Of a stretch of 64,000 nucleotides of DNA, positions 3,870 through 55,870 are shown piece by piece. How positions within the stretch are numbered: position 1 is the first letter of the stretch; the number at the start of each line of letters is the position of its first letter. The stretch is from a virus: the IMG/VR virus record IMGVR_UViG_3300045988_112739, one strand, 5' to 3'. The notes below the pieces were generated by a model. It had not been told where the DNA came from and ran no database searches. It saw only the letters and a program-made list of their open reading frames with translations. A program made the translations under genes and the position numbers.

Positions 3870-3882
3870 AGGAGAAATTCTT

Positions 3883-4335
3883 ATTAAGTATATAGCATAT
3901 GGAAGTAATATGAGCGTATACCAAATGTCAAGATTGTGTCCTACTGCAACACTTGTAGGCATAGGAACTTTGCAGAATTGGTCTATGGGGTTTTATAAAA
4001 CCTGTAATTCCAATAGGGCATATGTTTATGCAGATGTCAGAGAGAGCAAGGACAACTTTGCAAATGTAGTGGTTTGGGAAATTACAAACCCTAGCGAACT
4101 GGAAACGCTTGATAGATTTGAGGGATATCCTAGTCTTTACAAGAAAATAGACAATTGTAAAGTAGTTATAAAAAATGGCGAAACAATTGAAGGTTTTCTA
4201 TATAAAATGTCCAATAATGCAGAAAATGGAGTCCCTGACGTTTATTATTTCATGCGTATTTATCAGGCTTATAAAAATTTACATATTCCTACAAAGCAAC
4301 TTGATGATTTTCTAGAGAATTTATCAAGGTCGTGA
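3883..4335 (+). CDS. gamma-glutamyl cyclotransferase-like (AIG2/GGCT) protein, probable ATT start
   Basis: The hallmark YGSNM lies upstream of the first ATG (3910). ATT at 3883 is 8 nt after aaaggag and gives (M)KYIAYGSNMS. LDRFEGYPSLYKK follows later. Confidence 0.6.
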   Translation: MKYIAYGSNMSVYQMSRLCPTATLVGIGTLQNWSMGFYKTCNSNRAYVYADVRESKDNFANVVVWEITNPSELETLDRFEGYPSLYKKIDNCKVVIKNGETIEGFLYKMSNNAENGVPDVYYFMRIYQAYKNLHIPTKQLDDFLENLSRS

Positions 4336-5668: not shown

Positions 5669-5679
5669 GGTGATTGCGC

Positions 5680-6666
5680 ATGGGAATGAAGTTTAAGGCT
5701 GTTGAAGCCGTAAGAGAAAAGATTGCCGTAAAGATTGCATTAATGGGGGCAAGCGGCTCTGGCAAAAGTTATACATCTTTGAGGCTTGCAACTGGTATGC
5801 TTGACGAAATGGAAAAGATAGATGGTAAGAGGGGGAAGATACTTCTTGCTAACACAGAGGGTTCTCGTGGTAGATATTATGCTAATGAGTTTAAGTATGA
5901 TATCGTAGACCTTGAATCTCCATATAATCCAGAGCTTTTCATTGACCTTATTAATTACGCAGTTGACGAAAAGTATTCAGTACTTATTATTGATAGTTCG
6001 TCTGCCGAGTGGGAAGGCAAGGGTGGTTGTCTTGAACTCCAGCAACAGCTTGGTGGTAAGTATCAGGATTGGTCGAAGGTCTCGCCAAGGCATGATAGAT
6101 TTATTGATGCCCTTGCTCTATCGCCAATTCATATTATTGCCACTATGAAGGGTAAAGACCAGTACGAAGTCGACAAGGATGATAGGGGCAAGGTTTCTGT
6201 AAAGAAACTTGGTGTCGGAGCTAAGCAAAGAGAAGGATTTGAGTACAACTTTACTTGTACGTTTAATATTGATAGAGATAGTCACGTTGCTAAGAGCGAA
6301 AAGGACAATACGCACATCTTCGAAAAAGAGGGAGATGTTCTTCTGTCAGAAGCTTTTGGCGAAAAGATTATTAAGTGGGCTAACAGTGGCGAGGGCGTAA
6401 GCATATCTGATATAAAGTTTGCAGAAAACAGAGAAGCTACAGGTGATGGCACTGTAACCGAAGCAAATGAACTCGCAAACAAGTTGTCGGAAATCAAGAG
6501 TCTTACAGGCGCACTTACATCTGCTAATGTAGATAGAGAAATCATTGCTACTGCAATTAAGAAGTTTCATATAGTGAACGGAAAGCCTAGTGCAAACTTT
6601 AATTCTATAAAGTCTGTAGATGTAGCTAATAATGTAATCAACGAACTTCTTACACTCAAAGGTTAA
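5680..6666 (+). CDS. Sak4-like/AAA_24 RecA-fold ATPase (recombination)
   Basis: Walker A GASGSGKSYT and Walker B-like LIIDSSS. ATG 5680 is 6 nt after gaggtga. Lies next to ssb. Confidence 0.55.
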   Translation: MGMKFKAVEAVREKIAVKIALMGASGSGKSYTSLRLATGMLDEMEKIDGKRGKILLANTEGSRGRYYANEFKYDIVDLESPYNPELFIDLINYAVDEKYSVLIIDSSSAEWEGKGGCLELQQQLGGKYQDWSKVSPRHDRFIDALALSPIHIIATMKGKDQYEVDKDDRGKVSVKKLGVGAKQREGFEYNFTCTFNIDRDSHVAKSEKDNTHIFEKEGDVLLSEAFGEKIIKWANSGEGVSISDIKFAENREATGDGTVTEANELANKLSEIKSLTGALTSANVDREIIATAIKKFHIVNGKPSANFNSIKSVDVANNVINELLTLKG

Positions 6667-7211: not shown

Positions 7212-8390
7212 ATGTTGATGTCGAAGAAAATAAGACTTAAACCAACTACTGAACAGGAAATATTATTCATGAAGAGCGTAGACGTTGCAAGATGGGCTTA
7301 CAATTATCTTTTATCTGAAAAGCAAAGGGTGTATGATGAATATTTACAGAATGGAAAAAGTGGTCGCAGAGATATCAGTGAGGGGGAAGTTAGGAAGTAT
7401 ATCAATAATGTCTTAAAACCTACAACGCACACATGGCTCAAAGAAGTTAGCAACAACGTCATGAAACAAGCTGTAAAAGATGCTGACGGTGCTTACAAAA
7501 GGTTCTTTTCTGGACAGAGTGGAAAGCCAAAATTTAAATCTAAGAAAAGAAGCAAGCTATCTTTTTATGTCAATTACGAAAGCCTTTCAAGACAGCCTAA
7601 CGGTTTTCGTGGTGAGAGGATAGGTTTTGTAAAGACATCTGAACCATTACCAAAACTCAAACCTAACGAGAAATATTCTAATCCTCGCATTTCATTCGAT
7701 GGAAAATATTGGTATTTGTCAATAGGCTATAACGTTGAGGATATAGAATGTACTTTAACGGATAAGAGTTTGGGTATTGACTTAGGTATAAAGGATTTGG
7801 CTATTTGTTCTGATGGTAAAATCTTTAAAAACATCAATAAGACTAAACGCGTTAGAGAATTAAAGAAAAGACTAAAAAGAGAACAAAGAAAATTTTCTAA
7901 AATGATTAACGGTAACATAGATAAACTTACAGTTAATCACAAACCAATATACAAAAAACCCTTGGAAGAATGCAAAAACATTCAAAAACAAAAAGAAAGA
8001 ATTAAATTGATTTATCGTAAACTTACAAATATTAGAAATAATTATATTCACCAAACTACATCTGAAATAGTGAAAGCCAAACCATTTCAGATAGTCATGG
8101 AAGGTTTAAACGTTAAGCAAATGATGAAAAATAAACATCTTGCCGAAGCAATTTCTGACGAAAAGTTTTATGAATTTATAAGACAGATGAAATATAAATC
8201 TCAAAGATACGGAATCACATTCATACAGGTTGATAGGTTTTATCCATCAAGCAAAATGTGTTCGCGTTGTGGTAATATTAAGAGAGATTTAAAGCTCTCA
8301 GATAGAACTTATAAATGTGATGTTTGTGGTCTGGTAATTGATAGAGATTATAATGCTAGTATAAACTTAGCAAACTATAAAGCTGTGTAG
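7212..8390 (+). CDS. tnpB: TnpB RNA-guided nuclease (OrfB_IS605 with Zn ribbon)
   Basis: RuvC motifs GIDLGIKDL, VMEGLNVKQM and DRDYNASINL. Zn ribbon CSRCG...CDVCG. N-terminal RLKPTTEQ. Confidence 0.85.
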   Translation: MLMSKKIRLKPTTEQEILFMKSVDVARWAYNYLLSEKQRVYDEYLQNGKSGRRDISEGEVRKYINNVLKPTTHTWLKEVSNNVMKQAVKDADGAYKRFFSGQSGKPKFKSKKRSKLSFYVNYESLSRQPNGFRGERIGFVKTSEPLPKLKPNEKYSNPRISFDGKYWYLSIGYNVEDIECTLTDKSLGIDLGIKDLAICSDGKIFKNINKTKRVRELKKRLKREQRKFSKMINGNIDKLTVNHKPIYKKPLEECKNIQKQKERIKLIYRKLTNIRNNYIHQTTSEIVKAKPFQIVMEGLNVKQMMKNKHLAEAISDEKFYEFIRQMKYKSQRYGITFIQVDRFYPSSKMCSRCGNIKRDLKLSDRTYKCDVCGLVIDRDYNASINLANYKAV

Positions 8391-12961: not shown

Positions 12962-12990
12962 TTGACAAAATGAGACAGTTGTGCTATAAT
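12962..12990 (+). promoter_or_regulatory. sigma70-type promoter P4
   Basis: aatgaCTTGACAaaa, 17-nt spacer, TGcTATAAT. Confidence 0.75.
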
Positions 12991-13012
12991 AAATGTAGCA
13001 CAACTATTTTTA
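12978..13012 (+). terminator. intrinsic terminator-like hairpin overlapping the -10 of P4
   Basis: gttgtgcta-9 nt-tagcacaac followed by tattttta. The left arm includes the -10 region. Confidence 0.45.
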
Positions 13013-13026
13013 TAAGGAGTGATTTT

Positions 13027-14659
13027 GTGAGCAATTATTTTATATACCACTTACACAGTGACTATAGTAGTTGCACTACAAATATTGATAGTGTTACTAA
13101 GATAGATATGTATATTAATAAAGCTAAAGAGTGTGGAATGACGGCGTTAGCTTTCTCGGAGCATGGAAATATTCTGAATTGGTATGAGAAAAAGAGCAAA
13201 ATCGAAAAAGCAGGAATGAAGTATGTTCATGCAATGGAAGCTTATGTCACTGAAACCCTTGACGAAGCTATAAGAGATAATTACCATTTTGTCCTAATTG
13301 CAAAAAACTATGATGGGTTTCTGGAATTAAATAGGCTTAACACCAAATCATATAATAGACACGATAACTCATTCTACTATCGTCCAAGAATTTCGCTTGA
13401 CGATATAATGAACACTAGCGATAACATAATTATCACCACAGCTTGTCTTGCCGGACTGTTGAACAGTCAAAAAGATGAATTAAAAGAAAAATTTGTTAAT
13501 TGGGCAATAACCCATAAGGATAGAGTTTTTTTAGAGATACAGCATCATAATGTATCTGAACAAATTTCCTATAACAAAAATTTGTATATTCTGTCCCAAA
13601 AAACAGGACTTAGACTTATAACTGGAACTGATACTCACAGCATAGATGAGCCTCATGCAGAAGCCAGAGTGATTATGCAAAAAGCAAAAAAAGTATATTT
13701 TGATAACGAAGATGGTTGGGATTTAACTTTTAAAACTTACGATGAACTTGTAGAGAGTTATCGTAAGCAAAATAGTTTGCCAATGGATGTAGTTTTTGAA
13801 GCCATCAGGACAACTAAGATTATTGAGGATATGATAGAGCCTTTTGAGCTTGATATGTCTACAAAATATCCTAAGTTGTATGATAATTCTCTTGAAGTAT
13901 TCCGTAAGATGGTTTATGATTCTATTGACACTCACCCATATGCGCTTAAATTTCATACTAAGGAAGAGATTGTAAAGCGCATTGAAGAAGAACTTCCTGT
14001 TTATGAAAAAACACACATGATAGACTTTATGTTGTTCCAGAAATTTGTGCGAGATTGGGAACACGAAAACAACATATATGTTGGTGCAGGTAGAGGTAGT
14101 GTGTCTGGGTCTTATATAGCTTATCTATTAGGCATAACAGAAATGGATAGTATAAGATTTGACCTTAACTTCTTTAGGTTCGCTAATGAATATCGTGTTA
14201 GTAATTGTGATATTGATAGTGATTATTACGACCCCGACAGAGATAAAACGAGAAACTTTCTTTTAACTTGTGATAAAATAAAGTCCGCTGAAATAGCCGC
14301 TTTTGGTACTATTAAATTAAGAGGCGCTATAAGAGATGTAGGTAGAGCTTTAGAACTGTCGCTTGATGAAGTCACAGAAATTTGTGATAAACTTGAAGAG
14401 GTTGAAATTAATGGCAAAAAAGTTGAAATAGCAGGAGAGGCATTAAGAAAGAAATATCCAGAACTTTTTAAGTATGTTGATTTGGTTCAAGATGTGATTG
14501 TTTCTGTAGGTACTCACCCAGCAGGAGTTCTCTGTGCTAGTAGACCTATAGATGAAGAAATAGGTTTATTTAGTTTGTCTACAACAGAACACATGGTTTC
14601 TTGTAATGATATGTATGGTCTTGATGCCTGCTGGTGGACGAAACTTGATTGTTTAGGGT
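13027..14659 (+). CDS. dnaE: DNA polymerase III alpha subunit, exon 1
   Basis: GTG 13027 lies 8 nt after aaggag. The track start 12970 falls inside promoter P4. PHP motif YHLHSDYS. Ends ...KLDCLG within the conserved K.DxLGL motif. Confidence 0.8.
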
Positions 14660-15839
14660 AAACTATCTTGCCCTAGTAAAAACGGGTTATATGCTGGAAA
14701 AACCTTAGAGCTTTTATGCACTTACAGTATTTTGTATTTATTGTAATCGAAACAGTTAAAGGATTGGTTAATCAGCAGGCACGATAAGGTCAGCCTCAAC
14801 GACTATGGGAATATCCCAGTCATACATAAGTGATTATGTATGATAACCCCGTGAAAATGATATAGTCTGAACACTATAGAAATATAGTGAGATAAGCAGA
14901 AATGACTTATCATCTAGTAATTGTCGCATTAATATGAAAGGTGGTGATAAAGATTTCTAAGAAGAAGATTACAAAAGAAATGTTTGTAAATGAACTTGTA
15001 AGGTTGTATAATGAGTTTGGCAAAGTTAATATAAAAATATGGAATGAACACACTATATACAAAGGTTCTTGCTTTAATTGGTATTTGCACCAATATGGAA
15101 AGATTAGGACTTTATTAAACGAAGTTGGGATTACATACATAAACTACAATGAACTTACTGAGGAGCAAGTTCTTGAAAAAGCAAAGTGTATTTATCAAGA
15201 ATATGGATATATAAATAAAACCTTATGTGAACAAAACGGTTTATGGAGTTCGCCAGTTAGACATGTTTTTGGCAATTACAATAATTTATTTAAAGCTATT
15301 AATGCACCTATCAATATGTCTAGAGGTGTAACTAAAGACGAGCTTGTCAGCGATATCAAAGAGTTCATACAAAAATATCGGAGTTATTCAGCCGTTTTAT
15401 ATAGAAAATATGGGAAATATAGTTGTGCGATTGTTAATAAATATGGCGGTTGGGAAAATATACTTAATGAACTAGGGATGCGCTCTACAAGAAATAGTCA
15501 GCCAGAAAACTTTATAGAAACCTTTTTTGAACAAAATCAAGTTGAATTTGAAATACATAAAGGCTTTGAATGGCTTATATCTCCAGATGGGTATAAAATG
15601 TATGTAGACTTCTTTTTAACTAAATATAATTTGGTTATAGAGTATGACGGAGAGCAACATTATAAAATGGTAAAATATTTCCATAAAACACAAGAAAATT
15701 TTGAAAAGTGTTGTGAGCGAGACCGTCAAAAAGCTAAATTGTTAGAGGCACATGGTATAAAAATTTATAGAATAATATATAGCGACAATATATTATTTAA
15801 ACTTCAAGAATTATTAGAATTACTAGATTAACAAATTTG
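14660..15839 (+). mobile_element. group I intron with homing endonuclease ORF in dnaE
   Basis: P1 GGGUa/uGCCC (14656..14660 with 14669..14673). P10 UAUCU (14664..14668) pairs with exon AGAUA (15841..15845). caacgacta at 14797 and gatatagtc at 14859. Terminal G at 15839. The join gives LDCLG-LDNVGII in frame. Confidence 0.75.
14941..15831 (+). CDS. intron-encoded homing endonuclease, PD-(D/E)XK (Vsr/DUF559-like) with N-terminal homing-endonuclease-associated repeats
   Basis: C-terminal VDFFLTKYNLVIEYDGEQH...RDRQK. Four N-terminal repeats of the YGxxxxLLNEVG type. Located after the P7' core, in a peripheral loop. Confidence 0.65.
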   Translation: MVIKISKKKITKEMFVNELVRLYNEFGKVNIKIWNEHTIYKGSCFNWYLHQYGKIRTLLNEVGITYINYNELTEEQVLEKAKCIYQEYGYINKTLCEQNGLWSSPVRHVFGNYNNLFKAINAPINMSRGVTKDELVSDIKEFIQKYRSYSAVLYRKYGKYSCAIVNKYGGWENILNELGMRSTRNSQPENFIETFFEQNQVEFEIHKGFEWLISPDGYKMYVDFFLTKYNLVIEYDGEQHYKMVKYFHKTQENFEKCCERDRQKAKLLEAHGIKIYRIIYSDNILFKLQELLELLD

Positions 15840-17389
15840 TAGATAATGTCGGTATTATCAATAAAACGTGTGAACTTGCGGGTATAGACCGTATTAATCC
15901 TGATAACATTGATTTGGAAGACTGGGAAGTTTGGGACGATATTAGACAGGACACTACAGCGGTATTTCAGATGGAGTCTCCATATGCCGCTCAGACAATG
16001 AAACAAATATTTTCTGATAGTACCATAGCTAAAATAAGAAAAGCTATTCCTAATATCAAGATGTTGAAGTTAATGAGTTATGCAAACGCTCTTATCAGAC
16101 CCTGTGGCGCTTCTGTTAGAGAAGATTCTGTCAATGGTATAATTAAAAAAACTGGCATAAACGATATTGACGATTTGCTTGCACCAGAGCTAGGTAATTG
16201 TATTATTCAAGAGGACATCATGCTCTTCTTGATGAAATTCTGTGGTTTTGATTTGCCGAAGGCAGATTATGCTAGGAAATGCATTGCCAAGAAGCGCGGC
16301 ACAGAACAGTTAATGCCAGAGATTGAAGAAGGCTTTAATAGCAACGCAAAAGTAAAGTATAATTTATCAAATGAAAAAGCTGATGAAATTATAAAGCCTG
16401 TATTAAAATGCATATTAGATGCCACTAGATATGCGTTTAGTTGGAATCACTCTGATGCTTACAGCTTTATAGGATATGCTTGTGGATATCTTAGACATTA
16501 TTATCCTCTGGAATTCCTTACAACTTGTCTTAATGTATGGCAAGATAAAACGGAGAAAACCGCAATGGTTACTAGTAAAATAGCCGAAAGAGGATATAAG
16601 ATTGCTAATGCAAAATTTAGAATGTCTAGGGCAGAATATTTTTGTGATAAATCAACAGGCATAATTTATAAAGGAATAAAGTCTATTAAATACCTCAATG
16701 AAAATGTAGCAGAAATTCTATATTCTTTCAAGGATAATAAATATAATTCCTTTGTAGAACTGCTTTGCGATATCAGTAAAACGGCTATAAATTCAAGACA
16801 GGTAGGGGTTTTAATAGATATAGATTTCTTTGAAGAATTTGGAAATGCTAAACAATTAGCATTAATCTACAATATATTCAATATGTTTAAGCAAGGAAAT
16901 GCTAAACTCATCAAAAAGGAGAGGGTAGCTAATAACCCCATTCTCAATAATATAGTGGCAAGATATTCTAAAGAAACAGCAACAAACTATACACAGCTTG
17001 ATTGTAAAAATATATTATCAGAAGCAGAACAGTATATTATGTGTAGTATAACTGATGATTACCCTATAGGATATAAGATAAAAGTTCGCAAGGAATATTT
17101 AGGATATATTGATTACAAAACTAATAAGCCAGAAGATAGACCTAAAATTCTTATTCAAAGTTTAAAAAAGTGTATAGGTAAATTCGGTAAGGATGCTGGA
17201 AAGCCGTGGTGCTATATGTTTGATGGCTATAGCTTAGGCAGTGGTAAAGTGTCTACTTACAGTATTTTTGCTAAACAGTTTGAGAAAAATTCTTTTGCCG
17301 TTGATGATGTCATTTACATAGATGAATGGCATAGAAACAATAAAGGATATTTCTATATTGATAAATACAAAATATTGCCAAAAATTTAA
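15840..17389 (+). CDS. dnaE: DNA polymerase III alpha subunit, exon 2
   Basis: The frame is open from 15833 and has no proper start. Contains TTAVFQMES (the GVFQ.ES motif of Pol III alpha). Confidence 0.8.
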
Positions 17390-27862: not shown

Positions 27863-27865
27863 TTA

Positions 27866-28243
27866 ATGAATAATATATTTATAATTCTAGCTATGATATT
27901 TTGTCATATAGTAGATGATTATTATTTACAAGGTATTTTCGCAAATATGAAGCAAAAGAAATGGTGGCAAGAAAACGCTCCACAAAAGTTATATAAATAT
28001 GATTATATAGTTGCATTGATAATGCACTCTATGAGTTGGTCGTTTATGATAATGTTGCCTATTGCTATTAGTATGAATTTTGATGTATCTATAATTTTCG
28101 CTATTGTTTTTGTTGGTAACACCATAATTCATGCAGTTGTAGACAATCTAAAAGCAAATAGGCTTAAAATAAATCTTGTCGTAGACCAAAGTATTCATAT
28201 ATTGCAAATAATTATAACTTATATAATATTATATATAATATAA
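27866..28243 (+). CDS. membrane protein (DUF3307-like)
   Basis: About four hydrophobic segments. HIVDDYYLQG near the N-terminus. Confidence 0.45.
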   Translation: MNNIFIILAMIFCHIVDDYYLQGIFANMKQKKWWQENAPQKLYKYDYIVALIMHSMSWSFMIMLPIAISMNFDVSIIFAIVFVGNTIIHAVVDNLKANRLKINLVVDQSIHILQIIITYIILYII

Positions 28244-28266
28244 GCTAAACAAACTGGAGGATATTT

Positions 28267-28662
28267 ATGAGTGATGAAATAATTAAAGTTTTCGATACAC
28301 TTGGTGAAAAATTTGGAATTGTAATTGATTGGGGTCAAGAAAATATTTATCCATATATGCAAGATTTATGTCAAAGAACTGCACAGTGCAAGATTACTAA
28401 TAACATTATAGTATTAATTGTTTGGACAATTATATTTGTATTTAGTATGTGTGGAATTATTTTTATAATAAAGAAATTTCCAAAAGATGTTGGTATGGAC
28501 GCGATAGAAGAAACCTTTCTTGGACTATCTCTATTTGGATTTATTATTTTTAGTGTATTAATCATATTGAGTTTAGTTATGTCGATACAAAATATTAACA
28601 GTATATGCATGTATGTATATGTCCCCGAAAGGGCTTTGCTCGATATGTTGCATTCAATATAA
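28267..28662 (+). CDS. membrane protein
   Basis: Two long hydrophobic segments. RBS tggagga. Confidence 0.5.
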   Translation: MSDEIIKVFDTLGEKFGIVIDWGQENIYPYMQDLCQRTAQCKITNNIIVLIVWTIIFVFSMCGIIFIIKKFPKDVGMDAIEETFLGLSLFGFIIFSVLIILSLVMSIQNINSICMYVYVPERALLDMLHSI

Positions 28663-28676
28663 GGAGATATTGTGTT

Positions 28677-28913
28677 ATGAAAATGTTTACTTGTCTTAAC
28701 ATTGCAGATAGTTGTGAACTACAAACTGTCGCAGAAGCAATAAGAAATATACGGCTTCACTCAAGCTGGACTTTTGATTATGATAAACTTTGGGAAGAGT
28801 TAATTGAGCTAGACGATGAGTTTTTTTATTACGATTTAGATTATGATGATAGCATTGTCACAGCTCTTGAAAAAATAAACAAGAAAGACGACACCAATCT
28901 CAAATTTGGATAA
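28677..28913 (+). CDS. hypothetical acidic protein
   Basis: ATG 28677 lies 9 nt after aaggag. The track start 28605 overlaps the upstream gene. Confidence 0.45.
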   Translation: MKMFTCLNIADSCELQTVAEAIRNIRLHSSWTFDYDKLWEELIELDDEFFYYDLDYDDSIVTALEKINKKDDTNLKFG

Positions 28914-28992
28914 ATATGAAAAATATGGGAATATAGTTAACACTATATTCCCATAAAATATTTTTATAAAAATCAAGAAATTAAAAAATGAC

Positions 28993-29021
28993 TTGACAAA
29001 ATTAATCTTTTGTGATATAAT
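28993..29021 (+). promoter_or_regulatory. sigma70-type promoter P8 (no ORF downstream)
   Basis: aatgaCTTGACAaaa, 17-nt spacer, TGtgaTATAAT. Faces the 3' end of the late arm. Confidence 0.7.
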
Positions 29022-29027
29022 ATAATT

Positions 29028-29152
29028 GTAAGGAACTTCTACACATTCCTTACAAGGCAATTCACTCAAACTATAGAGTGATAAGCTTTATTTCATTTCA
29101 CCGAAATGTCTCCGGCTCTTTTCTTTTCACTGGGGACGTTTTCTTTTTTTTT
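29028..29152 (+). ncRNA. candidate small RNA (~125 nt) transcribed from P8
   Basis: 5' hairpin ttgtaaggaa-10 nt-ttccttacaa (29026..29055). Small hairpin catttc-acc-gaaatg. Terminal stem gtctcc/ggggac followed by gttttcttttttttt. No RBS-preceded ORF. Confidence 0.35.
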
Positions 29153-29174
29153 ATTTAAATATCATTTTTATTCC

Positions 29175-30140
29175 CACCAGCGAAATCACCGCTACGATTA
29201 CACTGCTGTCCATTTAAACCCCCAGTCCCGCAAGTTCCTTGCGGAGTGCGGTCGCCCTAGCTTCTAGTCCAGCAAGCCTGTTTCTGTCCTCATCGGTGGC
29301 ACTTCCGGAAACTATTGCCGCAAGCGGGCGTACGCGCTCACGGTCTATCGCCGCAAATTCCCGTGCTATCTCTGCGGCTCTGAGCCTGCTTTCACGCGCG
29401 GCACGCTCCTCATCGGTCTCGCGCGGTTCGATGATTTCATCATAATTCTGCGACATATGCGTATCCTCCTGTTACCTGTTTGATGTCCGTTATGGTTCTC
29501 ATGCTGGGGCGCATGTCCAGCGGGTCGATGTCGTTTGTGGTGCGCACCTGGTAGTAGCGCTGGCACTTCGCGAGTTCCGTTGCCGGGTCGGGTGGGACGA
29601 ATGATGTTGCCAGTGACCCACTTTCCAGTTTTGTCCACGCGAGTTTCACGGAATCCCCGGCTTCGGTGCCCTTGTTGAACCCGATGGAGACTGCGGAGAT
29701 GTATTCGCCATCTGGCAGGTCGACCGATACCTTGTTCACTCCCTCGCGAAGCGCCAAAGTATAGTAGCTGTCAACGTAATCCCCCGAAGCGTTCACAGTG
29801 CGGATTCTCGCCGACCAGACACCGGATACCTCTGAAACGTTCAGCGAGAGTGTGTACTTCCCGGGCGCAAGAGGGAATTCGATGTTCTGCCAGAACGCAT
29901 GGGTATTTGAAGTCAGCGTTGCTGTAGCAGTCAGGCGGATTCCATTGGTTTCCGGAGCAGCTTTGCACTTATCAGTGGAGATGTACCACCTGTCCACGGT
30001 GTAACCGTCGCTGTACTCACTCAGTCCGCGCTGATTCACCTTGAAATTCGGGTTTATCAGCAGGTTCGGATTGCTTGCTATCTCATTTGCGTGAAGTCCG
30101 TCAAGTGTATCCGCATTGCCGCCATTTGCGGGGAGCGTTG
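29175..30140. other. G+C-rich foreign cassette (fibre distal domain plus small downstream gene)
   Basis: Sampled 60-nt lines give 57-63% G+C here versus 30% just upstream at 30181. The switch falls at the codons for GGNADTLDGLHA. Confidence 0.8.
29214..29456 (-). CDS. small Arg/Ala/Glu-rich protein, possible fibre assembly or chaperone factor
   Basis: G+C-rich ORF overlapping the fibre gene end by 17 nt. Helical, charged sequence. The function is inferred from position only. Confidence 0.45.
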   Translation of the reverse strand: MSQNYDEIIEPRETDEERAARESRLRAAEIAREFAAIDRERVRPLAAIVSGSATDEDRNRLAGLEARATALRKELAGLGV

Positions 30141-30717
30141 TCGGTATATCTTCTTTAGTAGCAATTTCTTTATCAAATAATTTACCTGTAGTTTTAGTTA
30201 TTTCAAAAGCATTGCTTCTATCTTCAGTAGATGTACCATTACCAACGGAAAAAAGAGTGTCAGCATTACTCTTGTTAAACGTTCCAAAAGCTATCTCGTA
30301 ATCATTTTTGTCGGCTATGACATTGTTACCATGCACAAAAGCCCCTTCTTTTAGCGCACTTGAAGTATTTCCTCCCGCATGAGCAAAAAACTTTGATGCT
30401 GTTGTACTATAACCTTCAGTATGAGAATAATCCCCGGTGGCGTCGGTATACGCACCTTCCGAATGGCTTGCCGAGCCATCAGCTTTCGTATATAATCCCT
30501 CTGCATGAGAGTAATTACCATTTGCTTTATTTTGAGTATAATCATTGAAGATTTCAGCATTCACACCTGTACCAGCTTTACCAACACCAGTAACTTCATT
30601 AGCCCCTAAATACAATTTTTTAGTATCAGTTGTATAATAAAAAACATCGTTGTCTTTAGTACTCGCTGCATATTCTGCGGCAGTACCACGAAGAAATTTG
30701 ACTTTATTATCAGCCAT
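29440..30717 (-). CDS. chimeric tail fibre / receptor-binding protein
   Basis: N-terminal KVKFLRGTAAEY...DTKKLYLG fibre motif. Hep_Hag-like repeats (SHAEG, SHSEG, SHTEG). NADTLDGLHA collar. G+C-rich jelly-roll-like distal domain containing ELAKCQRYY. Confidence 0.7.
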   Translation of the reverse strand: MADNKVKFLRGTAAEYAASTKDNDVFYYTTDTKKLYLGANEVTGVGKAGTGVNAEIFNDYTQNKANGNYSHAEGLYTKADGSASHSEGAYTDATGDYSHTEGYSTTASKFFAHAGGNTSSALKEGAFVHGNNVIADKNDYEIAFGTFNKSNADTLFSVGNGTSTEDRSNAFEITKTTGKLFDKEIATKEDIPTTLPANGGNADTLDGLHANEIASNPNLLINPNFKVNQRGLSEYSDGYTVDRWYISTDKCKAAPETNGIRLTATATLTSNTHAFWQNIEFPLAPGKYTLSLNVSEVSGVWSARIRTVNASGDYVDSYYTLALREGVNKVSVDLPDGEYISAVSIGFNKGTEAGDSVKLAWTKLESGSLATSFVPPDPATELAKCQRYYQVRTTNDIDPLDMRPSMRTITDIKQVTGGYAYVAEL

Positions 30718-30802
30718 TAGGCATTTCTCCTTTCATATTCATAATTTAATAAGGGTAATAATTCAACGTTATTAACCTTATTAATATTTTATCTTTTAGT
30801 AA

Positions 30803-31678
30803 TTAAGAAATAGCATCCCAAGTAAGAGCCTCGTCTGCACCATTAATTTTTGTAGCAAGAGTATCAGCAAGGTTCTCCTCTGCAACAGCCTTACCAGCAA
30901 GAGTAGCAGAAATTTCATTGCTTGCAGAAATAGTAACACTTATGCCAGTAGTTTCAGCCTTACCAGTATAGACATCAGCTAAGTCTTTCACATCAATATA
31001 TACGGGTGCTGTCTGATTGGCGATAGTCAGTTTAAGATATGTACCATTGGTAAGACCTGTAACGGGAGCATCATCACTGACAACAATAACTTCACCAGCA
31101 GTTACAACTAAATCCTTGGGAATATCTACTTCAAAAGGAGTACCAGTTCCATAAGTAAACTGATAAGTTTTAAGATATCCCTCGGTAGGAGTTTCCTTTA
31201 CTGTCATTACAAGGTCAGGAACAGTAATTGTACCAACAGTAGTCTCCTCTCCTGCCTTACCCTGTTTAATAGTCTGCTTAGACTTCTCTCCCGCACCAGC
31301 AGTTTCATTAGTAATAGTTACTGTATAATCTACAGCCGCAGGAATTTTAGCAAGTTCAGCAGCTACAAAATCCTTAATTGCCTTTACAGAAGCAAGAGCG
31401 GTGTCAGCAGTAGAATCACCAATTGCAGCTACGGTTTCGGGAACTACAACTGTAGAAGCAGTACCATCATAATAAGTTACAGACTTGTCAGTTGTATTTA
31501 CATAAACCTTTCCTGCAACCATAGTTACGGGAAGAGTATCAACAACCTCAATCTGGTTTGTATAAGATGTTTCGCCCTTAAAAAGCTGTCCCTCAATAAA
31601 ATAAAGGGTGTTAGCATCCTTAGTAGCAAGACCCTTATACTGCGCATAAGTGCCTGTTAAAAACTTTACATTAGCCAT
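30803..31678 (-). CDS. tail fibre-like protein (paralogous N-terminus)
   Basis: MANVKFLTGTYAQYKGL...NTLYFI shares its N-terminal motif with 29440..30717. Confidence 0.55.
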   Translation of the reverse strand: MANVKFLTGTYAQYKGLATKDANTLYFIEGQLFKGETSYTNQIEVVDTLPVTMVAGKVYVNTTDKSVTYYDGTASTVVVPETVAAIGDSTADTALASVKAIKDFVAAELAKIPAAVDYTVTITNETAGAGEKSKQTIKQGKAGEETTVGTITVPDLVMTVKETPTEGYLKTYQFTYGTGTPFEVDIPKDLVVTAGEVIVVSDDAPVTGLTNGTYLKLTIANQTAPVYIDVKDLADVYTGKAETTGISVTISASNEISATLAGKAVAEENLADTLATKINGADEALTWDAIS

Positions 31679-31698
31679 AATAAAATCTCCTTCTTAAA

Positions 31699-31950
31699 TT
31701 AAACGATAGTATCCCAATCAACAGTAGCCATACCGTCACCAACTAATACATAGCTGCTATCTTTATAAATATAGGACTTACTTGTATCAGTATCTATATA
31801 TATTTTATCAGCAAGACCCTGTGTAGGAAATTCAGACTTTTTAGAAAATATAACTTGTGATGTTGCACTTCCACCACTACCGCCAACAGGCGCGTTGCCA
31901 GCAATCTGTTTTAATTCACCCGTTGACTTCTGAAAAATATTTACCGACAT
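31699..31950 (-). CDS. small fibre-associated protein
   Basis: ADKIYIDTDTSKSYIYKDS is related to the fibre N-terminal motif. Confidence 0.45.
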   Translation of the reverse strand: MSVNIFQKSTGELKQIAGNAPVGGSGGSATSQVIFSKKSEFPTQGLADKIYIDTDTSKSYIYKDSSYVLVGDGMATVDWDTIV

Positions 31951-31961
31951 TTAATCACCCC

Positions 31962-34877
31962 TTAAACTATTTCTTCCATTTCATAAATGTATGCTGTACC
32001 AGAACCAACTTGAACAGTAAGTAATCCAGCTGTGGTATATGTAGCAGAGGCAACTACTCCAGAAGTCATTCCATAAAGTTTACCTCTATTAGCAGGAACA
32101 CCGTTACCAAAACAAAATACTCCAGAACTATGATATACACAGAAAGGATTGCCACCCGACATTGTTTGCTTAAAGGTGTTATTCGACGCTTCTCCTGTTT
32201 CTGGAGTAGAAGTTCCTATTAACTTCCATTTAAAAGGGAACATAGATAACATATCGTTTATCTTTTTTACAGAATAAGTTTCTGTTTCAGATGTAGTAGA
32301 TTTATCATTAATCGTTGCCATCTGTTTCCAACCATACCAAGCTTTTGAAGTGGAATTATATCTGTTGGTATATATTTCACCTGAGTTAAACTTAATAGCT
32401 GTAACACCGTATGTAGTTCCCATTTTGCGGACATCAACGATAAAATAAGTTCCAACAACAGGAGTATCAGTAACATTACCGTTGCAATAAATAAATCCCG
32501 AAGCAGGAAGTGTTAATATATAATCTAACAAGCTACCAGAGGTTAAAGTTCCTAAATTCTGAAGTAAATCGGTTGCCTTCTTACCATCAATGCTTCCCGC
32601 ATCAATCTTAGTCCAAGCACTCCAAGTCTGAGTTGAAGCATTATAAATTTTACTATAAAGCAAACTGGGACTACCAAAAGGCTGTACCGAAATTTGACGG
32701 TGAGTAGATGTCGCATTAACAGTACCTATCCAAGCTGCACTATCAATAGGCATACCTGTTACAGCAGAAGATATAGTTACTAAACCCGAAACAGATTCCA
32801 ACGCAAGTGTTTCTATATCTCCAGTAGACCACATTTTTAAATTCTGAACGAAATCGTCAGAATTAGGAATACTCTCGTTTATCTTCTTTGCACTCCAAGT
32901 CTTGTCGGTTGCATCAGCGACACTATCATCAATTAATGCATCAACAGGGGAATACTTCCACGATAAAATTCCAGTTTCATTAACCGCATATTCATAGAAA
33001 TAACCGCGCTGATAGTCCGATGAATTTTCTCCTATATACTGAACGACATCACCCTCGGTAGCAGTGTCAGGCATAACTTTGACCTGTACAGGGTTCTCTA
33101 CGAAGTCATCGGTTATATTAATAACTGCTCCATCTGCAAGAGTGGTTTTATCAAGTGTATTCCACTGTGCCTTAGTCCCGCTCCAAACAGAAATGTATTC
33201 AGGATTCTCTGCAAAGTCATCAGTTATGTTGATAATCGTCCCATCTGCAAGAGTAGTTTTGTCGAGCGCATCCCACTGTGCCTTTGTACCACTCCAAGCG
33301 GGTATATATTCAGATATATCCTTGCCACTTGCTTTGATATTTCCAGTGCCATCATCAAGAAGTATCTGGTTCTCTTTAATGTCAGTATCAGTCAGCTTAT
33401 CAGCTTTACTAGTGATATCAGTAGCCTTTGCATAAAGACCACCATCTGTGCCAACTTCAAGCAAGTTACCCTCGTCAGCAGAGATATTAACTTCGCCTGA
33501 AATTGTATTAGTAGCATCATTAATAGTAAGGGTAACTGTGCTTACCACTGTGCTTGCCTTGTAAATTTTGACGAGTTCATTCATAGACACAAAACTATAA
33601 GATATCTCTGTGTCTCCCTTAACAGCAAGAACTAAAACTGGTTGCCCATCAAGATTAGGGTTAATTGAGTTTGGATAAATCTCTTCACTCCAAATAAAAC
33701 TATTCACAAATGTAGTGTTAGCTTGGTCTAAAAACTGCTCCACAGGAAGATTTATTGTAAAATCAGCTACATCTGTTATTGTTGCATTGGGTTTTTTATA
33801 AAACATTAAAATGTTGTTTGCATATAAAACTGTTTTAATACCAAGACTTTCATCACCATTAACCCATGTTTTCAACTCTGTGGTTAAGTCTGTTATTTTA
33901 GTATCAACTTCGGTGTTGCTATAAGTCTCTGTTTTCTTATAGTAACTGCTTAATTTTGTATCAACTTCCGTTGTTTTTGCATAATCTTTCAGCTTATTAT
34001 CAACGTCTTCCGAAGTATCATAGTTAGTCAAAGCATCGGTAATCTTTTTATCGACAACAGTTGACTTGTCATATTCGGCAAGCTTATTATCTACGTCTTC
34101 GGTTTTTTCGTAACCAGTAAGAGCGGTTGCTATCTTACTATCAACTTCGGTAGAAGTATCATAATTAGCAAATTTGGCGTTTGTGTTAGTAATAGACTGT
34201 TTAGTTTCCTCAAACATATCGTTGGTTTTCTTTGCAGACCAAACCTTGTCAGTTGCTGTAATTGTAGTATCATCTATTTCAACAGAGCCTTTAATAGCAT
34301 TACCATTAAACAGGAGGGTATCGCCTGTATCGTTTGTAGTAAGTTTATCAAGAACTGTTTCTTTATTGTCGTGGGTATGCTTTGCTTTGTCAAGCGGCTC
34401 TATAAAAGCATCTATCTGTGTCTTGTCATAATATTTATCAGGGTCAAGTCCACCACCAGCGCCTTTAAGATTTGGCGTAGTAAACACACCATCTTCATTT
34501 GTTATGTCAAGTTTATATATTTCATTTGTGTTGTTGGGATTTTCTGTGATAGTTGGTGTAAAGCCATTATCACCTTTATCCCCTTTAATTGTATTAATAG
34601 TGCCAGCATCAATTTCAGAGCCATCAGATAATGTCACTATTAATTTATTGTTAGAATCAATGGTAGTACCAACAATAGATACACCATTCTTAACCTCAAA
34701 ACTGGTGGTCTCAACTGTACCACCAGTTCCAGTCCAAGAAAGTGTTACCTTGTTGCCATCAGTAGTAGGCGTTACACTATCAACCCTACAATCTGCACCT
34801 TTAATTGCACCAAGACCCTCAACAGCCTTGTCGGTATATTTTTTAGCTAATGCATAAGTACTAGCAGAAAAAGGCAT
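31962..34877 (-). CDS. large tail fibre protein (971 aa) with internal repeats
   Basis: Repetitive (T/S)EDVDNKL..Y.K.T.VD.K units, a 37-aa tandem duplication, and a beta-rich C-terminus. Confidence 0.6.
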   Translation of the reverse strand: MPFSASTYALAKKYTDKAVEGLGAIKGADCRVDSVTPTTDGNKVTLSWTGTGGTVETTSFEVKNGVSIVGTTIDSNNKLIVTLSDGSEIDAGTINTIKGDKGDNGFTPTITENPNNTNEIYKLDITNEDGVFTTPNLKGAGGGLDPDKYYDKTQIDAFIEPLDKAKHTHDNKETVLDKLTTNDTGDTLLFNGNAIKGSVEIDDTTITATDKVWSAKKTNDMFEETKQSITNTNAKFANYDTSTEVDSKIATALTGYEKTEDVDNKLAEYDKSTVVDKKITDALTNYDTSEDVDNKLKDYAKTTEVDTKLSSYYKKTETYSNTEVDTKITDLTTELKTWVNGDESLGIKTVLYANNILMFYKKPNATITDVADFTINLPVEQFLDQANTTFVNSFIWSEEIYPNSINPNLDGQPVLVLAVKGDTEISYSFVSMNELVKIYKASTVVSTVTLTINDATNTISGEVNISADEGNLLEVGTDGGLYAKATDITSKADKLTDTDIKENQILLDDGTGNIKASGKDISEYIPAWSGTKAQWDALDKTTLADGTIINITDDFAENPEYISVWSGTKAQWNTLDKTTLADGAVINITDDFVENPVQVKVMPDTATEGDVVQYIGENSSDYQRGYFYEYAVNETGILSWKYSPVDALIDDSVADATDKTWSAKKINESIPNSDDFVQNLKMWSTGDIETLALESVSGLVTISSAVTGMPIDSAAWIGTVNATSTHRQISVQPFGSPSLLYSKIYNASTQTWSAWTKIDAGSIDGKKATDLLQNLGTLTSGSLLDYILTLPASGFIYCNGNVTDTPVVGTYFIVDVRKMGTTYGVTAIKFNSGEIYTNRYNSTSKAWYGWKQMATINDKSTTSETETYSVKKINDMLSMFPFKWKLIGTSTPETGEASNNTFKQTMSGGNPFCVYHSSGVFCFGNGVPANRGKLYGMTSGVVASATYTTAGLLTVQVGSGTAYIYEMEEIV
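33091..33311 (-). repeat. two diverged ~111-nt tandem repeats inside the fibre gene
   Basis: They encode YIPAWSGTKAQWDALDKTTLADGTIINITDDFAENPE and YISVWSGTKAQWNTLDKTTLADGAVINITDDFVENPV. Confidence 0.7.
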
Positions 34878-35096: not shown

Positions 35097-36239
35097 TCAT
35101 AAATTAGTATTGAACAAGAAGGTATCTTGTTCCTCATTAGAAAGCTCAATAAGTTTATCATAGTACATCCATTTAAGAGGAACACCATTGAGTCTTCCCG
35201 CAGTTTTTTGTTTCCCTTTGCAACAATTACCAATGCATCCTCTTTGTATTTTGTAATGGCGTGCTGCATCAGCTGCCGAATCAAAAACAGCTCCTGTTGT
35301 AATACAAATAACCTTAATGCAATTTTTATTTCTTGACTGTTGCAAAAATCTTTCCACATCGTTATCAGACATTTGTATGTATTCGTCATACCATAATAAA
35401 TGGTGTCCAAGTACATGATTTATTATAGCATCATAATAACTAATTTCTCCATTATTTTTAACATATTTTATTTTTCTTGTTTTGTGATTACAACAAGCAT
35501 AAATCTCCGTTTGCTGTACTTTGTGTGTCCTAGAATATTCTATCGCAGAATTATATACTTTGTTTTCTTCTATGTCATATACCATTTTTGCCATAGGGAT
35601 TTTCTCGTTGTAATCATTCGATAAGATATTTGTCATTTCTATAAATTCTAAAAACTGTTCTTTTGTGTTATTGCCACTGCCATATTTAGCGTGAAAAGCT
35701 TTGTGTAAATCTTTAGTGACAGTTATAGCATTTGTAACATCAAGCCGTTTGTTAATACACCAATTATATCCATCAAGATGATGGACTTCCAACTCAGTCT
35801 CTTTACTTGTTTTACCTGATACTACACAAGTATAGTTATCTCTTGCCATCACACGCTTCACAAAATCTTTATATTCTTGAAGACATCTTTTGTTTTCTCG
35901 TTCATTATCAGACATATCCTTATTCCATCGGTAATTATTTTCTTTAGAATTGAATGTATCACAAGCACATTTGTGACAATAGTATTTCCCATTATGGTTA
36001 CACTGGACATAGTTACGATATGGCAGTTCTAATATTTCGTTACATTTATCACATTTTATCTTAACAGATATTAATGAACTTTTAGGTAAATCTATTACCT
36101 TTACCATAAGTTTTGTGCCGCTAGTTGTAGTCACACCCCACGGCTTTTCGCTTTGTGGTATAATATACCCTAAATTTCTATAATATCGAATGCTGTTGGT
36201 TGATAAACTTACTTCGACCTCTTTTGTAATAAGCCCCAT
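35097..36239 (-). CDS. free-standing HNH homing endonuclease with C-terminal NUMOD/IENR-like DNA-binding repeats
   Basis: HHLDGYNWC...TKDLHKAFHAKYG (HNH). N-terminal Cys pairs. Repeats SAIEYSRTHKVQQTEIYACC and SAADAARHYKIQRGCIGNCC. Confidence 0.7.
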   Translation of the reverse strand: MGLITKEVEVSLSTNSIRYYRNLGYIIPQSEKPWGVTTTSGTKLMVKVIDLPKSSLISVKIKCDKCNEILELPYRNYVQCNHNGKYYCHKCACDTFNSKENNYRWNKDMSDNERENKRCLQEYKDFVKRVMARDNYTCVVSGKTSKETELEVHHLDGYNWCINKRLDVTNAITVTKDLHKAFHAKYGSGNNTKEQFLEFIEMTNILSNDYNEKIPMAKMVYDIEENKVYNSAIEYSRTHKVQQTEIYACCNHKTRKIKYVKNNGEISYYDAIINHVLGHHLLWYDEYIQMSDNDVERFLQQSRNKNCIKVICITTGAVFDSAADAARHYKIQRGCIGNCCKGKQKTAGRLNGVPLKWMYYDKLIELSNEEQDTFLFNTNL

Positions 36240-54832: not shown

Positions 54833-55870
54833 TTACAAATCGCCAAGTTGACTTTGCTTAACTTCTTTAATTCCGTTTTCATCAAAATAATCAGCAAAAC
54901 TATCCATAGCTTCGTTATCATCGTAAATCGAAATCATCGCACCGCCACTAGCTTTATTCCAACCTATAAGTTCAATTATTACAGGGTCAGGCAGTTTTTT
55001 AGCCCTTAACTGAGAAATTAAGAAGTGTCTAAGGCTATGGAAATAGAAATCGCAACCCAGTACACTCTCAATTGTTCTAGCCCAGACACTAGCAGTGCTA
55101 ATTTGTGCCTGACGATAACCCTCTGGGGTTCTGGAAACAAACAGCCACTCGCTATCTATGCCTAACCGCTTACGCTCTTCCATCCATAAATCATAATATC
55201 TCTTAAACTGTTGTATAAAAACATATTTGTACAATAGTTTGCCACGACTACCTCTACCCTTAGTGGTTATTTTCTCTGGCGTTTTATATAGACAACCAAA
55301 AACAATATTGTCATCTGTGAACCAATTAGCCTTAAACCTTAATAACTCTGCTTTTCTAGCGCCACTAGCACAAGCCAAAGCCATAAAGCAAGCAGCTTGA
55401 TATTTGCCAAGCTCAACTAATTTTTCAAGACAAGTATCTACTTGCTCTTGTGTTAATACGGTCTTTTCTCTTACTGGTTCAATAGCCACCGTTTCTATCT
55501 TCTTGACATTATTACGATATCCCTCGTAATCTTCGTCTAATATATTTTCTATGAAATTACTAAACGAACTTATAATTGCTCTGACTGTTTTTAACCTATT
55601 AGGAGAGGCATCAAGCTCGTTTGTCATATAACTAAAGAAGCGAACAAACTCTCTCTTCTTAATATCTACAAACACTTTGTTTGCATTGTGTTCTACGTTC
55701 CAACAGAAAAACAATTTAAGCACCGCTGTATACTGATAAACAGTTTGTGCAGATTTATCAGTACTTATCTTATACTCCCTAAACTCATTCAGCAAATCTT
55801 TGTTTTCTTGGTCTACTTGCGCCCAAAGTTCTTCTGAAAAAGTGGAAGTTCTTTTTGTAGTTCTACTCAT
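54833..55870 (-). CDS. tyrosine recombinase / integrase (XerC/D-like)
   Basis: ASGARKAELLRF (Arg box), HSLRHFLIS (HxxR) and GGAMISIYDD (catalytic Tyr region). Confidence 0.75.
   Translation of the reverse strand: MSRTTKRTSTFSEELWAQVDQENKDLLNEFREYKISTDKSAQTVYQYTAVLKLFFCWNVEHNANKVFVDIKKREFVRFFSYMTNELDASPNRLKTVRAIISSFSNFIENILDEDYEGYRNNVKKIETVAIEPVREKTVLTQEQVDTCLEKLVELGKYQAACFMALACASGARKAELLRFKANWFTDDNIVFGCLYKTPEKITTKGRGSRGKLLYKYVFIQQFKRYYDLWMEERKRLGIDSEWLFVSRTPEGYRQAQISTASVWARTIESVLGCDFYFHSLRHFLISQLRAKKLPDPVIIELIGWNKASGGAMISIYDDNEAMDSFADYFDENGIKEVKQSQLGDL

Follow-up and report, generated by a model that had tools for sequence, protein, structure and literature searches.

A G+C-rich tail-fibre tip and its downstream gene in an A+T-rich gut phage, very probably acquired from prophages and recurrently exchanged with them

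A tail-fibre gene in the IMG/VR virus record IMGVR_UViG_3300045988_112739 changes its base composition partway along its length, which raises the question of where its distal half comes from. The stretch analysed (hereafter the window) comprises 64,000 nucleotides, and the G+C-rich DNA lies at 29171..30147. This segment very probably represents a horizontally acquired host-recognition cassette that is recurrently exchanged with a prophage pool. Its DNA is compositionally foreign: it deviates from its surroundings, it matches a pool of potential donors, and a relative without the insert (L037/L021) resumes homology to the window on both sides. The locus comprises the following elements, all on the minus strand (aa, amino acids; ORF, open reading frame; GC3, G+C fraction at third codon positions):

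29440..30717, minus strand: tail-fibre gene of 425 aa from the ORF list, a chimera of native stalk and foreign tip
30148..30717, minus strand: native N-terminal stalk, aa 1-190, 37% G+C, GC3 0.22, delimited by composition
30098..30147, minus strand: collar-coding crossover zone (..IPTTLPANGGNADTLDG..), the putative 5' recombination joint, delimited by change point and homology limits
29443..30097, minus strand: foreign distal domain, aa 208-425, with the short C-terminal tail ..CQRYYQVRTT..YVAEL after it, delimited by homologues and predicted fold
29440..29456, minus strand: 17-nt overlap ATGTCGCAGAATTATGA where the fibre gene ends and the 80-aa ORF begins, with GGAGGA just before it
29214..29456, minus strand: 80-aa Ala/Arg/Glu-rich ORF transferred with the tip, intact and with donor homologues
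29151..29213, minus strand: 20-codon stub ORF (MDSSVIVAVISLVGIKMIFK*), its ATG straight after the stop of the 80-aa ORF, aligned with contig L109

A three-segment maximum-likelihood change-point fit assigns 55.5% G+C to 29172..30146, with 27.9% in the left and 37.7% in the right flank. In 200-bp windows, G+C amounts to 23-32% at 28900-29200 and 55-60% at 29200-30000, and then to 37-44%. The block deviates with z = 8.2 from 2,443 other 975-bp windows (mean 33.5%, sd 2.7%, maximum 41.3%), and 1-kb bins elsewhere in the window reach a maximum of 40.4%. At its upper boundary, the jump takes place within a single ORF, where ..DIPTTLPANGGNADTLDGLHA.. is encoded and the change point is 30146; GC3 rises from 0.216 (aa 1-190) to 0.634 (aa 191-425). 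The initial annotation, made from the letters of the window, had described exactly this jump within a single reading frame at the collar codons, and the sliding-window and codon-position analysis that it proposed bears the description out. The overlapping 80-aa ORF that it reported is likewise present, on the minus strand, and its coordinates for the block are correct within about 20 bases; it overlooked the 43-nt start of a truncated third gene. The block has three components, i.e. the distal 235 codons of the fibre, the intact 80-aa ORF and 14 initial codons from a gene of the donor lysis module, with foreign DNA running 43 nt beyond the 80-aa ORF into the start of that gene (29171..29213).

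The product of 29440..30717 is identified as a phage tail fibre by its location in the tail module and by its homology to a tail-fibre family. The gene is the last long one of the leftward structural/late arm, tail proteins adjoin it, and its product matches PHROG 4492 "tail fiber protein" with E 2e-25 over aa 32-399. The stalk possesses SH(A/S/T)EG repeats as found in the head of trimeric autotransporter adhesins, and a weak sequence match in the PDB to such an adhesin (3wp8, E 0.3) is a lead only.

The source of the distal half was sought in a collection of 5.8 billion proteins. Distal fibre half and 80-aa ORF possess 1,694 homologous proteins, the best of them 80-90% identical, 337-370 aa long and located on contigs that reach 296 kb. 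A Ruminococcaceae bacterium is named as the source of one of these top homologues. The donor family comprises 5,063 clusters at 50% identity. In a scan of species-representative genomes, an uncultured Clostridia metagenome-assembled genome (MAG) carries a homologue of 88% identity and Oscillospiraceae UBA10671 homologues of 78-86%, with more distant relatives in other Oscillospiraceae and in Christensenella. The donor genes, whose products are about 90% identical to those of the window, are situated in siphovirus-like prophages within 55% G+C chromosomal contigs of Oscillospiraceae/Clostridia MAGs. Head and connector genes come first in these prophages, followed by the tape measure, two tail proteins, a 337-aa fibre, an 80/81-aa ORF that overlaps the fibre in the same way, and then a PF05105 holin or small membrane proteins ahead of an Amidase_2 endolysin. 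At the DNA level, donors and window are 81-88% identical over 30151/30054..29207/29171, and the G+C content of the cassette (56.2%) lies inside the donor range of 55-60%. A search for the donor lineage, as suggested in the initial annotation, hence leads from the distal half to prophages of Oscillospiraceae/Clostridia, and the in-frame capture of distal fibre and downstream gene from a G+C-rich donor agrees with the homologues, their identical gene order, the 17-nt overlap and the 14-codon stub. The matching composition, the large and diverse donor family and the downstream gene, which is whole in donors and cut in the window, set the direction of transfer as from prophage to low-G+C phage.

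Substitutions against the donor consensus show a weak excess of changes from G or C to A or T (S>W 57, W>S 38) in the window and a clearer one in the related phage contig L023 (77:39); this excess does not date the event. A metagenome scan with a 41-nt probe over the boundary of 80-aa ORF and stub retrieved three donors (79-86%) and three recipients, with no close donor of the window allele among them.

The 5' joint can be narrowed from both sides. The cassette-free syntenic relative L037/L021, a contig of 98 kb, is homologous to the window at 32267..30098 and at 28980..27865; between these stretches it has 500 bp, the window 1,118 bp. The rare donor fibres P0001/L002 and P0002 bear the same collar (..IPTTLPANGGNADTLDGLHANEIA..), and the DNA homology of L002 to the window starts at 30151. 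The G+C-rich donor and the native alleles have conserved collar DNA, including a 17-nt run ATACCAACAACGCTCCC that is identical in L002 and in the recipients L024/L035. The end of homology in L037, its start in L002 and the conservation of collar DNA together place the 5' crossover within about 50 nt (30098..30147). At the other end, homology of the window to donors and to related recipients stops exactly at 29171. Bases 29213..29171 correspond to the first 14 codons of the donor gene and are still G+C-rich, and the remainder of the stub ORF is native and A+T-rich. The full-length counterpart in L109, a G+C-rich phage contig, encodes a membrane-anchored protein of 76 aa (MDSSIIVAVISLIGTLGG..), and its gene heads the donor lysis module. 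No shared sequence is present at the 3' end of the cassette, and the 3' join is taken to be illegitimate.

An assignment of the truncated gene to XhlA or the PF05105 holins was considered and rejected, as the full-length 76-aa protein of L109 has no significant Pfam match; the stub of L023 alone corresponds to a PF05105 holin start. The donor lysis modules also contain a Tad2-like (Thoeris anti-defence) gene between holin-like genes and endolysin (L002 2057..2308; L109 4437..4694).

According to the mechanism that we propose, a large, low-G+C (~33%) Bacillota gut phage would have swapped all fibre sequence distal to the collar for prophage DNA of ~55% G+C, the donor being a siphovirus-like prophage of Oscillospiraceae/Clostridia. 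The import would comprise a carbohydrate-binding module (CBM)-like beta-sandwich tip, presumably binding a cell-surface glycan, the translationally coupled 80-aa ORF and, last, 14 codons of the head gene of the donor lysis module, which would now be a dead stub. The 5' join would have formed by homologous (homeologous) recombination in the ~50-nt collar common to both pools, with the frame kept, and the 3' join by an illegitimate event just upstream of the late-arm terminators. The collar would then act as a fixed socket into which G+C-enriched tips, or patches of tips, are repeatedly plugged from the prophage pool. The window encodes an AAA_24 (Sak4-like) ORF at 5674..6666 on the plus strand, a candidate single-strand annealing/recombination protein. 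By analogy, this protein may promote relaxed recombination at the collar; relaxed recombination by phage recombinases acting on prophages has been shown in other phages (PMC3945230).

The recipient belongs to a clade of 70-133 kb gut phage contigs that shares the cassette. The stalk protein is 91-98% identical across 17 related IMG/VR contigs in this size range, and at least five different tips follow the same collar in the clade:

Tip type 1, fibre of 425 aa (window, L024, L028, L023): 80-aa ORF next
Tip type 2, fibre of 493 aa (L026): diverges past ..CQRY, with an additional C-terminal domain and another downstream ORF
Tip type 3, fibre of 506 aa (L035): diverges past NPDFRVNQRG
Tip type 4, fibre of 324 aa (L037): short tip
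Tip type 5, fibre of 515 aa (L038): another type

All five tips have a GC3 of 0.41-0.65, and the stalk one of 0.22-0.25. The alignments describe a fibre with an exchangeable distal module, i.e. a conserved N-terminus and a variable part past a fixed joint. A uniform composition of the gene in related phages had been named in the initial annotation as evidence against a capture; relatives display the same jump within the gene, and L037 lacks this cassette. The 3' end of L023 is a decayed stub of another donor gene, the PF05105 holin start, with ATG changed to ATA, a frameshift and G/C to A/T changes. Identity between recipients varies from 53% to 100% among 60-bp blocks. Over 30054-29935, L024 matches donor L124 at 100% identity and the window at 88%, and the window over 29814-29695 is 93% identical to L003 and 79% to L024. 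These comparisons speak for exchange with the prophage pool that was repeated and patchwise, rather than for one capture long ago. Of the capture event put forward in the initial annotation, the capture itself stands, and its singleness gives way to repeated exchange in view of two 3' stubs, five tip alleles and block-wise mosaicism. Its epithet "recent" holds in a relative sense: composition is barely ameliorated, yet a clade differing by ~8-9% in DNA shares the cassette, and the best sampled donors are at a synonymous divergence (dS) of 0.28-0.42.

The 80-aa ORF follows the fibre directly in 34/34 donor loci examined, and the gene beyond it varies. The 17-nt overlap is identical in these 34 loci and in all recipients, and the upstream GGAGGA is invariant in the 34 donors; this arrangement suggests translational coupling of fibre and 80-aa ORF. 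Among recipients, the ORF is intact and 99-100% identical, although the next gene was cut. Its ratio of nonsynonymous to synonymous divergence (dN/dS) against the donors is 0.10-0.18 and that of the tip 0.14, values indicating purifying selection on both foreign ORFs. The 80-aa protein is probably helical, and with moderate confidence we regard it, from its genomic linkage and conservation, as a fibre-specific partner (assembly factor or cap). As a gene always linked to the fibre, it may represent a new class of fibre partner proteins.

The fold of the tip was predicted with AlphaFold2. A first run on a shallow, near-identical alignment yielded a pLDDT of 47 and was unusable. With 40%-identical relatives added to the alignment, the distal domain is predicted as a beta-sandwich with a pLDDT of 73.6 overall and 80-94 in the core. 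Foldseek aligns this model with CBM4/16/61/29/6 and phage tailspike C-terminal domains in the PDB (E from 5e-5, TM ~0.4) and with phage tail fibres and CenC-like modules among predicted structures (E from 2e-7, TM 0.5-0.58). The domain is therefore best read as a candidate glycan-binding receptor tip with a predicted CBM-like beta-sandwich.

Searches for characterised relatives gave the following. Pfam yields no match for fibre or 80-aa ORF, CBM models included, and against PDB sequences neither these two proteins nor a profile obtain more than insignificant matches. A megablast of 28500..31000 against 50,697 phage records finds no match, and tblastn of the fibre against phage records finds distant matches only (<40% identity), so within these records no cultured relative appears to bear this fibre. 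A string search of the literature for the collar motif returned nothing.

Could such a block be an artefact of assembly, in which an assembler fused a low-G+C phage to a co-occurring G+C-rich prophage via the conserved collar? Collar DNA is common to both gene pools, five related contigs end within the cassette, and the short scaffold L149, described below, resembles a possible mis-join. A fusion would nevertheless require two mis-joins, one of them in frame. Contig L001, which stems from a different human-gut sample (ERZ916239), runs through both junctions and agrees with the window at 99.994% identity along 17,096 bp, the exact 425-aa fibre protein occurs on 6-7 contigs of 20-200 kb, and both junctions recur in IMG/VR, ENA and whole-genome shotgun assemblies from at least seven datasets and different assemblers. 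The recipients among these have diverged by 1-10% and their stub has decayed, which requires that stalk and cassette replicated as one molecule. The explanation by mis-assembly is thus practically negligible, and independent assemblies speak against the chimera that the initial annotation had wished to exclude. Hardly more credible is the reverse direction, in which the tip originated in the low-G+C phages and passed from them to G+C-rich prophages. Collar-bearing prophage fibres (P0001, P0002) are indeed rare singletons, and the 98.9% identity of P0002/L149 to a recipient, together with its shortened 80-aa ORF, makes an occasional back-transfer possible. Composition and codon usage of the cassette are however those of the donors and not of the phage, hundreds of diverse homologues in G+C-rich contexts stand against one low-G+C clade, and the downstream lysis gene is truncated on the phage side only.

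One ancient capture in the ancestor of the clade, followed by vertical descent with point mutation only, would account for the agreement of window, L024/L028 and L145 on the 3' end point within ~1 nt and for a cassette identity among recipients (~91%) similar to that of the flanks. It is improbable in view of the different 3' stub of L023, the range of identity between blocks, some of which are nearer to donors than to sister phages, the almost unameliorated composition and the four other tip alleles at the same site. More weight attaches to the suggestion, still an unlikely one, that the 80-aa ORF is a hitch-hiker, e.g. the first gene of a donor lysis or accessory module caught between the tip and the illegitimate 3' break. 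The ORF resembles no chaperone family, lysis genes adjoin it in donors, a similar fibre C-terminus is accompanied by another ORF in the distant relatives L010 and L011, and in L149 it is truncated. It stays by the fibre while lysis genes change, however, its overlap and GGAGGA motif do not vary among the donors, all recipients conserve it while the adjoining gene is cut and decaying, and its dN/dS is low. We accordingly retain acquisition from, and recurrent exchange with, the prophage pool as the preferred reading, with the 80-aa ORF as a probable partner of the tip.

Several results weigh against this reading or parts of it. The closest sampled donors are 86-88% identical in DNA (dS 0.28-0.42) and none is near-identical to the cassette of the window. 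The only near-identical G+C-rich match is L149 (ERZ28659499 scaffold_6860), which is 4.4 kb long, has ~50% G+C and carries a fibre N-terminus of prophage type. Its positions 3500..4282 are 98.9% identical to L028 over 784 bp, from the collar to ~90 nt into the 80-aa ORF, with L024 alike, and the ORF is cut to 31 aa; L149 could be a chimeric scaffold, and represents either that or a recent back-transfer. The related IMG/VR contigs L030, L031, L033, L034 and L036 terminate inside the cassette, 130-1,000 bp past the collar, probably because the sequence is polymorphic or common to co-occurring prophages. The similarity of the tip to the CBM fold reaches a Foldseek probability of 1.0 at modest TM-scores of 0.4-0.58. 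The label "partner gene", already used in the initial annotation, has linkage to the fibre and purifying selection in its favour and lacks a family match: the 80-aa ORF matches no known chaperone family in Pfam, PHROG, NCBIfam or PDB sequences. Nor is the pairing absolute, as L010 and L011 have the same short fibre C-terminus followed by a different ORF of 146 aa. Finally, the endolysin of the window has one named homologue, in an Oscillospiraceae MAG, and its 34% identity is too weak for host inference.

Swapping of tail-fibre tips is textbook biology, and the present case is a classic exchange of a distal fibre module with a small downstream gene, a well-documented process without a new mechanism. 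Distal fibre or adhesin cassettes are reportedly swapped in gp37-gp38 of T-even phages and in the stf-tfa genes of P2, Mu and lambda, as Haggard-Ljungquist and colleagues are said to have found in 1992 and Tetart and colleagues in 1998. Our locus resembles these systems in its conserved N-terminal fibre, in the exchange of the distal part and a small downstream gene as a unit, and in crossovers at short conserved motifs within the fibre gene. It differs in that no sequence relationship to gp37/gp38 or Tfa exists, that the joint is the ..GGNADTLDG.. collar and the partner an unclassified 80-aa Ala/Arg/Glu-rich protein, and that donor and recipient are separated by >20 points of G+C, which renders the event visible by eye. 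From the chaperone families (Tfa, gp38 and gp57-like, or intramolecular chaperone domains), the 80-aa ORF differs by the lack of a profile match; its location, coupling and co-transfer agree with them. The distal domain is predicted to resemble CBM4-16-61/CenC-type tips in a beta-sandwich of ~130 residues (Foldseek E 5e-5 in the PDB, 2e-7 among predicted tail fibres); it differs in a sequence identity of only 12-25%, TM-scores of 0.4-0.58 and the absence of a Pfam CBM match.

Virulent lactococcal phages recombine with prophages. As in those phages, an infecting phage would here have gained prophage DNA via short imperfect homology, and the window encodes the candidate Sak4-like protein named above; the role of this recombinase is putative in the present case, and the window carries in addition a tyrosine recombinase gene (54833..55870). 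Acquisition of resident-prophage DNA by relaxed homologous recombination, to which the same likeness and difference apply, has been described (PMC3945230). Unrelated Alteromonas phages share host-recognition modules of a tail fibre and its cognate chaperone, whose function was tested experimentally (PMC10579305). There, too, the fibre and a small downstream gene move jointly between phages of different architecture; in our case the chaperone role is a putative one, and only the distal half of the fibre moved, with an in-frame join.

The locus provides a natural example: its joint is mapped to a 50-nt collar, truncation of a donor gene sets the direction, and composition alone separates donors from recipients. 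The collar ..IPTTLPANGGNADTLDG.. represents a natural frame-preserving splice site for the engineering of fibres of this family. For metagenomics, a caution follows, as contigs of this clade often break within the cassette.

Which phage received the cassette, and in which host? The window encodes a split DnaE-type polymerase, a primase, NrdD with its activase, TnpB, a tyrosine recombinase, a SleB-like hydrolase and an Amidase_2 endolysin. Polymerases of Clostridioides, Thomasclavelia and Bacillus phages match that of the window at 44-47% identity, which points to an uncultured lineage of Bacillota phages. The tyrosine recombinase ORF (Phage_integrase and SAM-like N domain; 54833..55870, minus strand) is located in the middle of the structural arm, and from its presence the phage may be temperate or plasmid-like rather than virulent. 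DNA in common with Oscillospiraceae prophages implies that phage and prophages were once in the same cell, and a very A+T-rich phage would accordingly share cells with G+C-rich prophages. As recombination requires both genomes in one cell, a switch of receptor or strain inside a single host group is no less likely than the change in host range that the initial annotation had considered. For this uncultured lineage of large phages from the human gut, the locus suggests Oscillospiraceae as hypothetical hosts. A wider proposition is put forward tentatively, and we lean somewhat against it: that this clade of ~100-kb, 33% G+C gut phages draws all its fibre tips, repeatedly and patchwise, via the collar socket from resident prophages of an Oscillospiraceae host richer in G+C by >20 points. 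If true, the prophage pool would be a standing library of receptor-binding modules, and foreign tips would serve as a direct, sequence-readable host marker for an otherwise unassignable phage lineage.

Two further features lie below the cassette:

29026..29055, minus strand: terminator-like hairpin that follows the cassette closely and closes the leftward arm (pattern scan, consensus match only)
28924..28955, both strands: terminator-like palindromic hairpin with a 14-bp stem between two convergent arms (pattern scan)

GC skew switches its sign at 28924..28955. The A+T-rich spacer just below the cassette contains, at 28993..29021 on the plus strand, a perfect 12/12 match to a sigma-70-like promoter (TTGACA, 17 nt, TG-TATAAT), a consensus match only, directed antisense into 80-aa ORF and fibre. 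DNA beyond 29171 differs among window, L024 and L145, so that the end of the late arm forms a second mosaic boundary.

An origin of the tip variation as a diversity-generating retroelement target or a shufflon-like invertible cassette was rejected, since the cassette has no DNA or protein repeat within the 64-kb window; a reverse transcriptase was not seen among the window ORFs scanned, which did not comprise every ORF. A tRNA scan found none, and tblastn of the 941-aa structural protein against phages found no match.

Several mobile or interrupted elements occur elsewhere in the window. The DnaE-type polymerase at 12970..17389 (plus strand) is divided into two ORFs, 12970..14661 with PHP and NTPase and 15914..17389 with finger and HhH, and a 296-aa ORF between the halves (14941..15831) may be an intervening mobile element. 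A TnpB/IS605 OrfB-type ORF (HTH_OrfB_IS605, OrfB_IS605, Cas12f1-like TNB) is situated among replication genes at 7212..8390 (plus strand), and an HNH / I-TevI-type homing endonuclease-like ORF is inserted among tail genes at 35097..36239 (minus strand). The C-terminal ~100 aa (..LLQNLGTLTSGSLLDYILTLPASGF..) of a 971-aa tail protein (31962..34877, minus strand) resemble the short fibre tip of L037 (6620..6975; ..FLQNIGGLTSGSLLEYALTLPTSGW..), a resemblance according to which two different tail proteins of the clade bear one and the same small tip domain.

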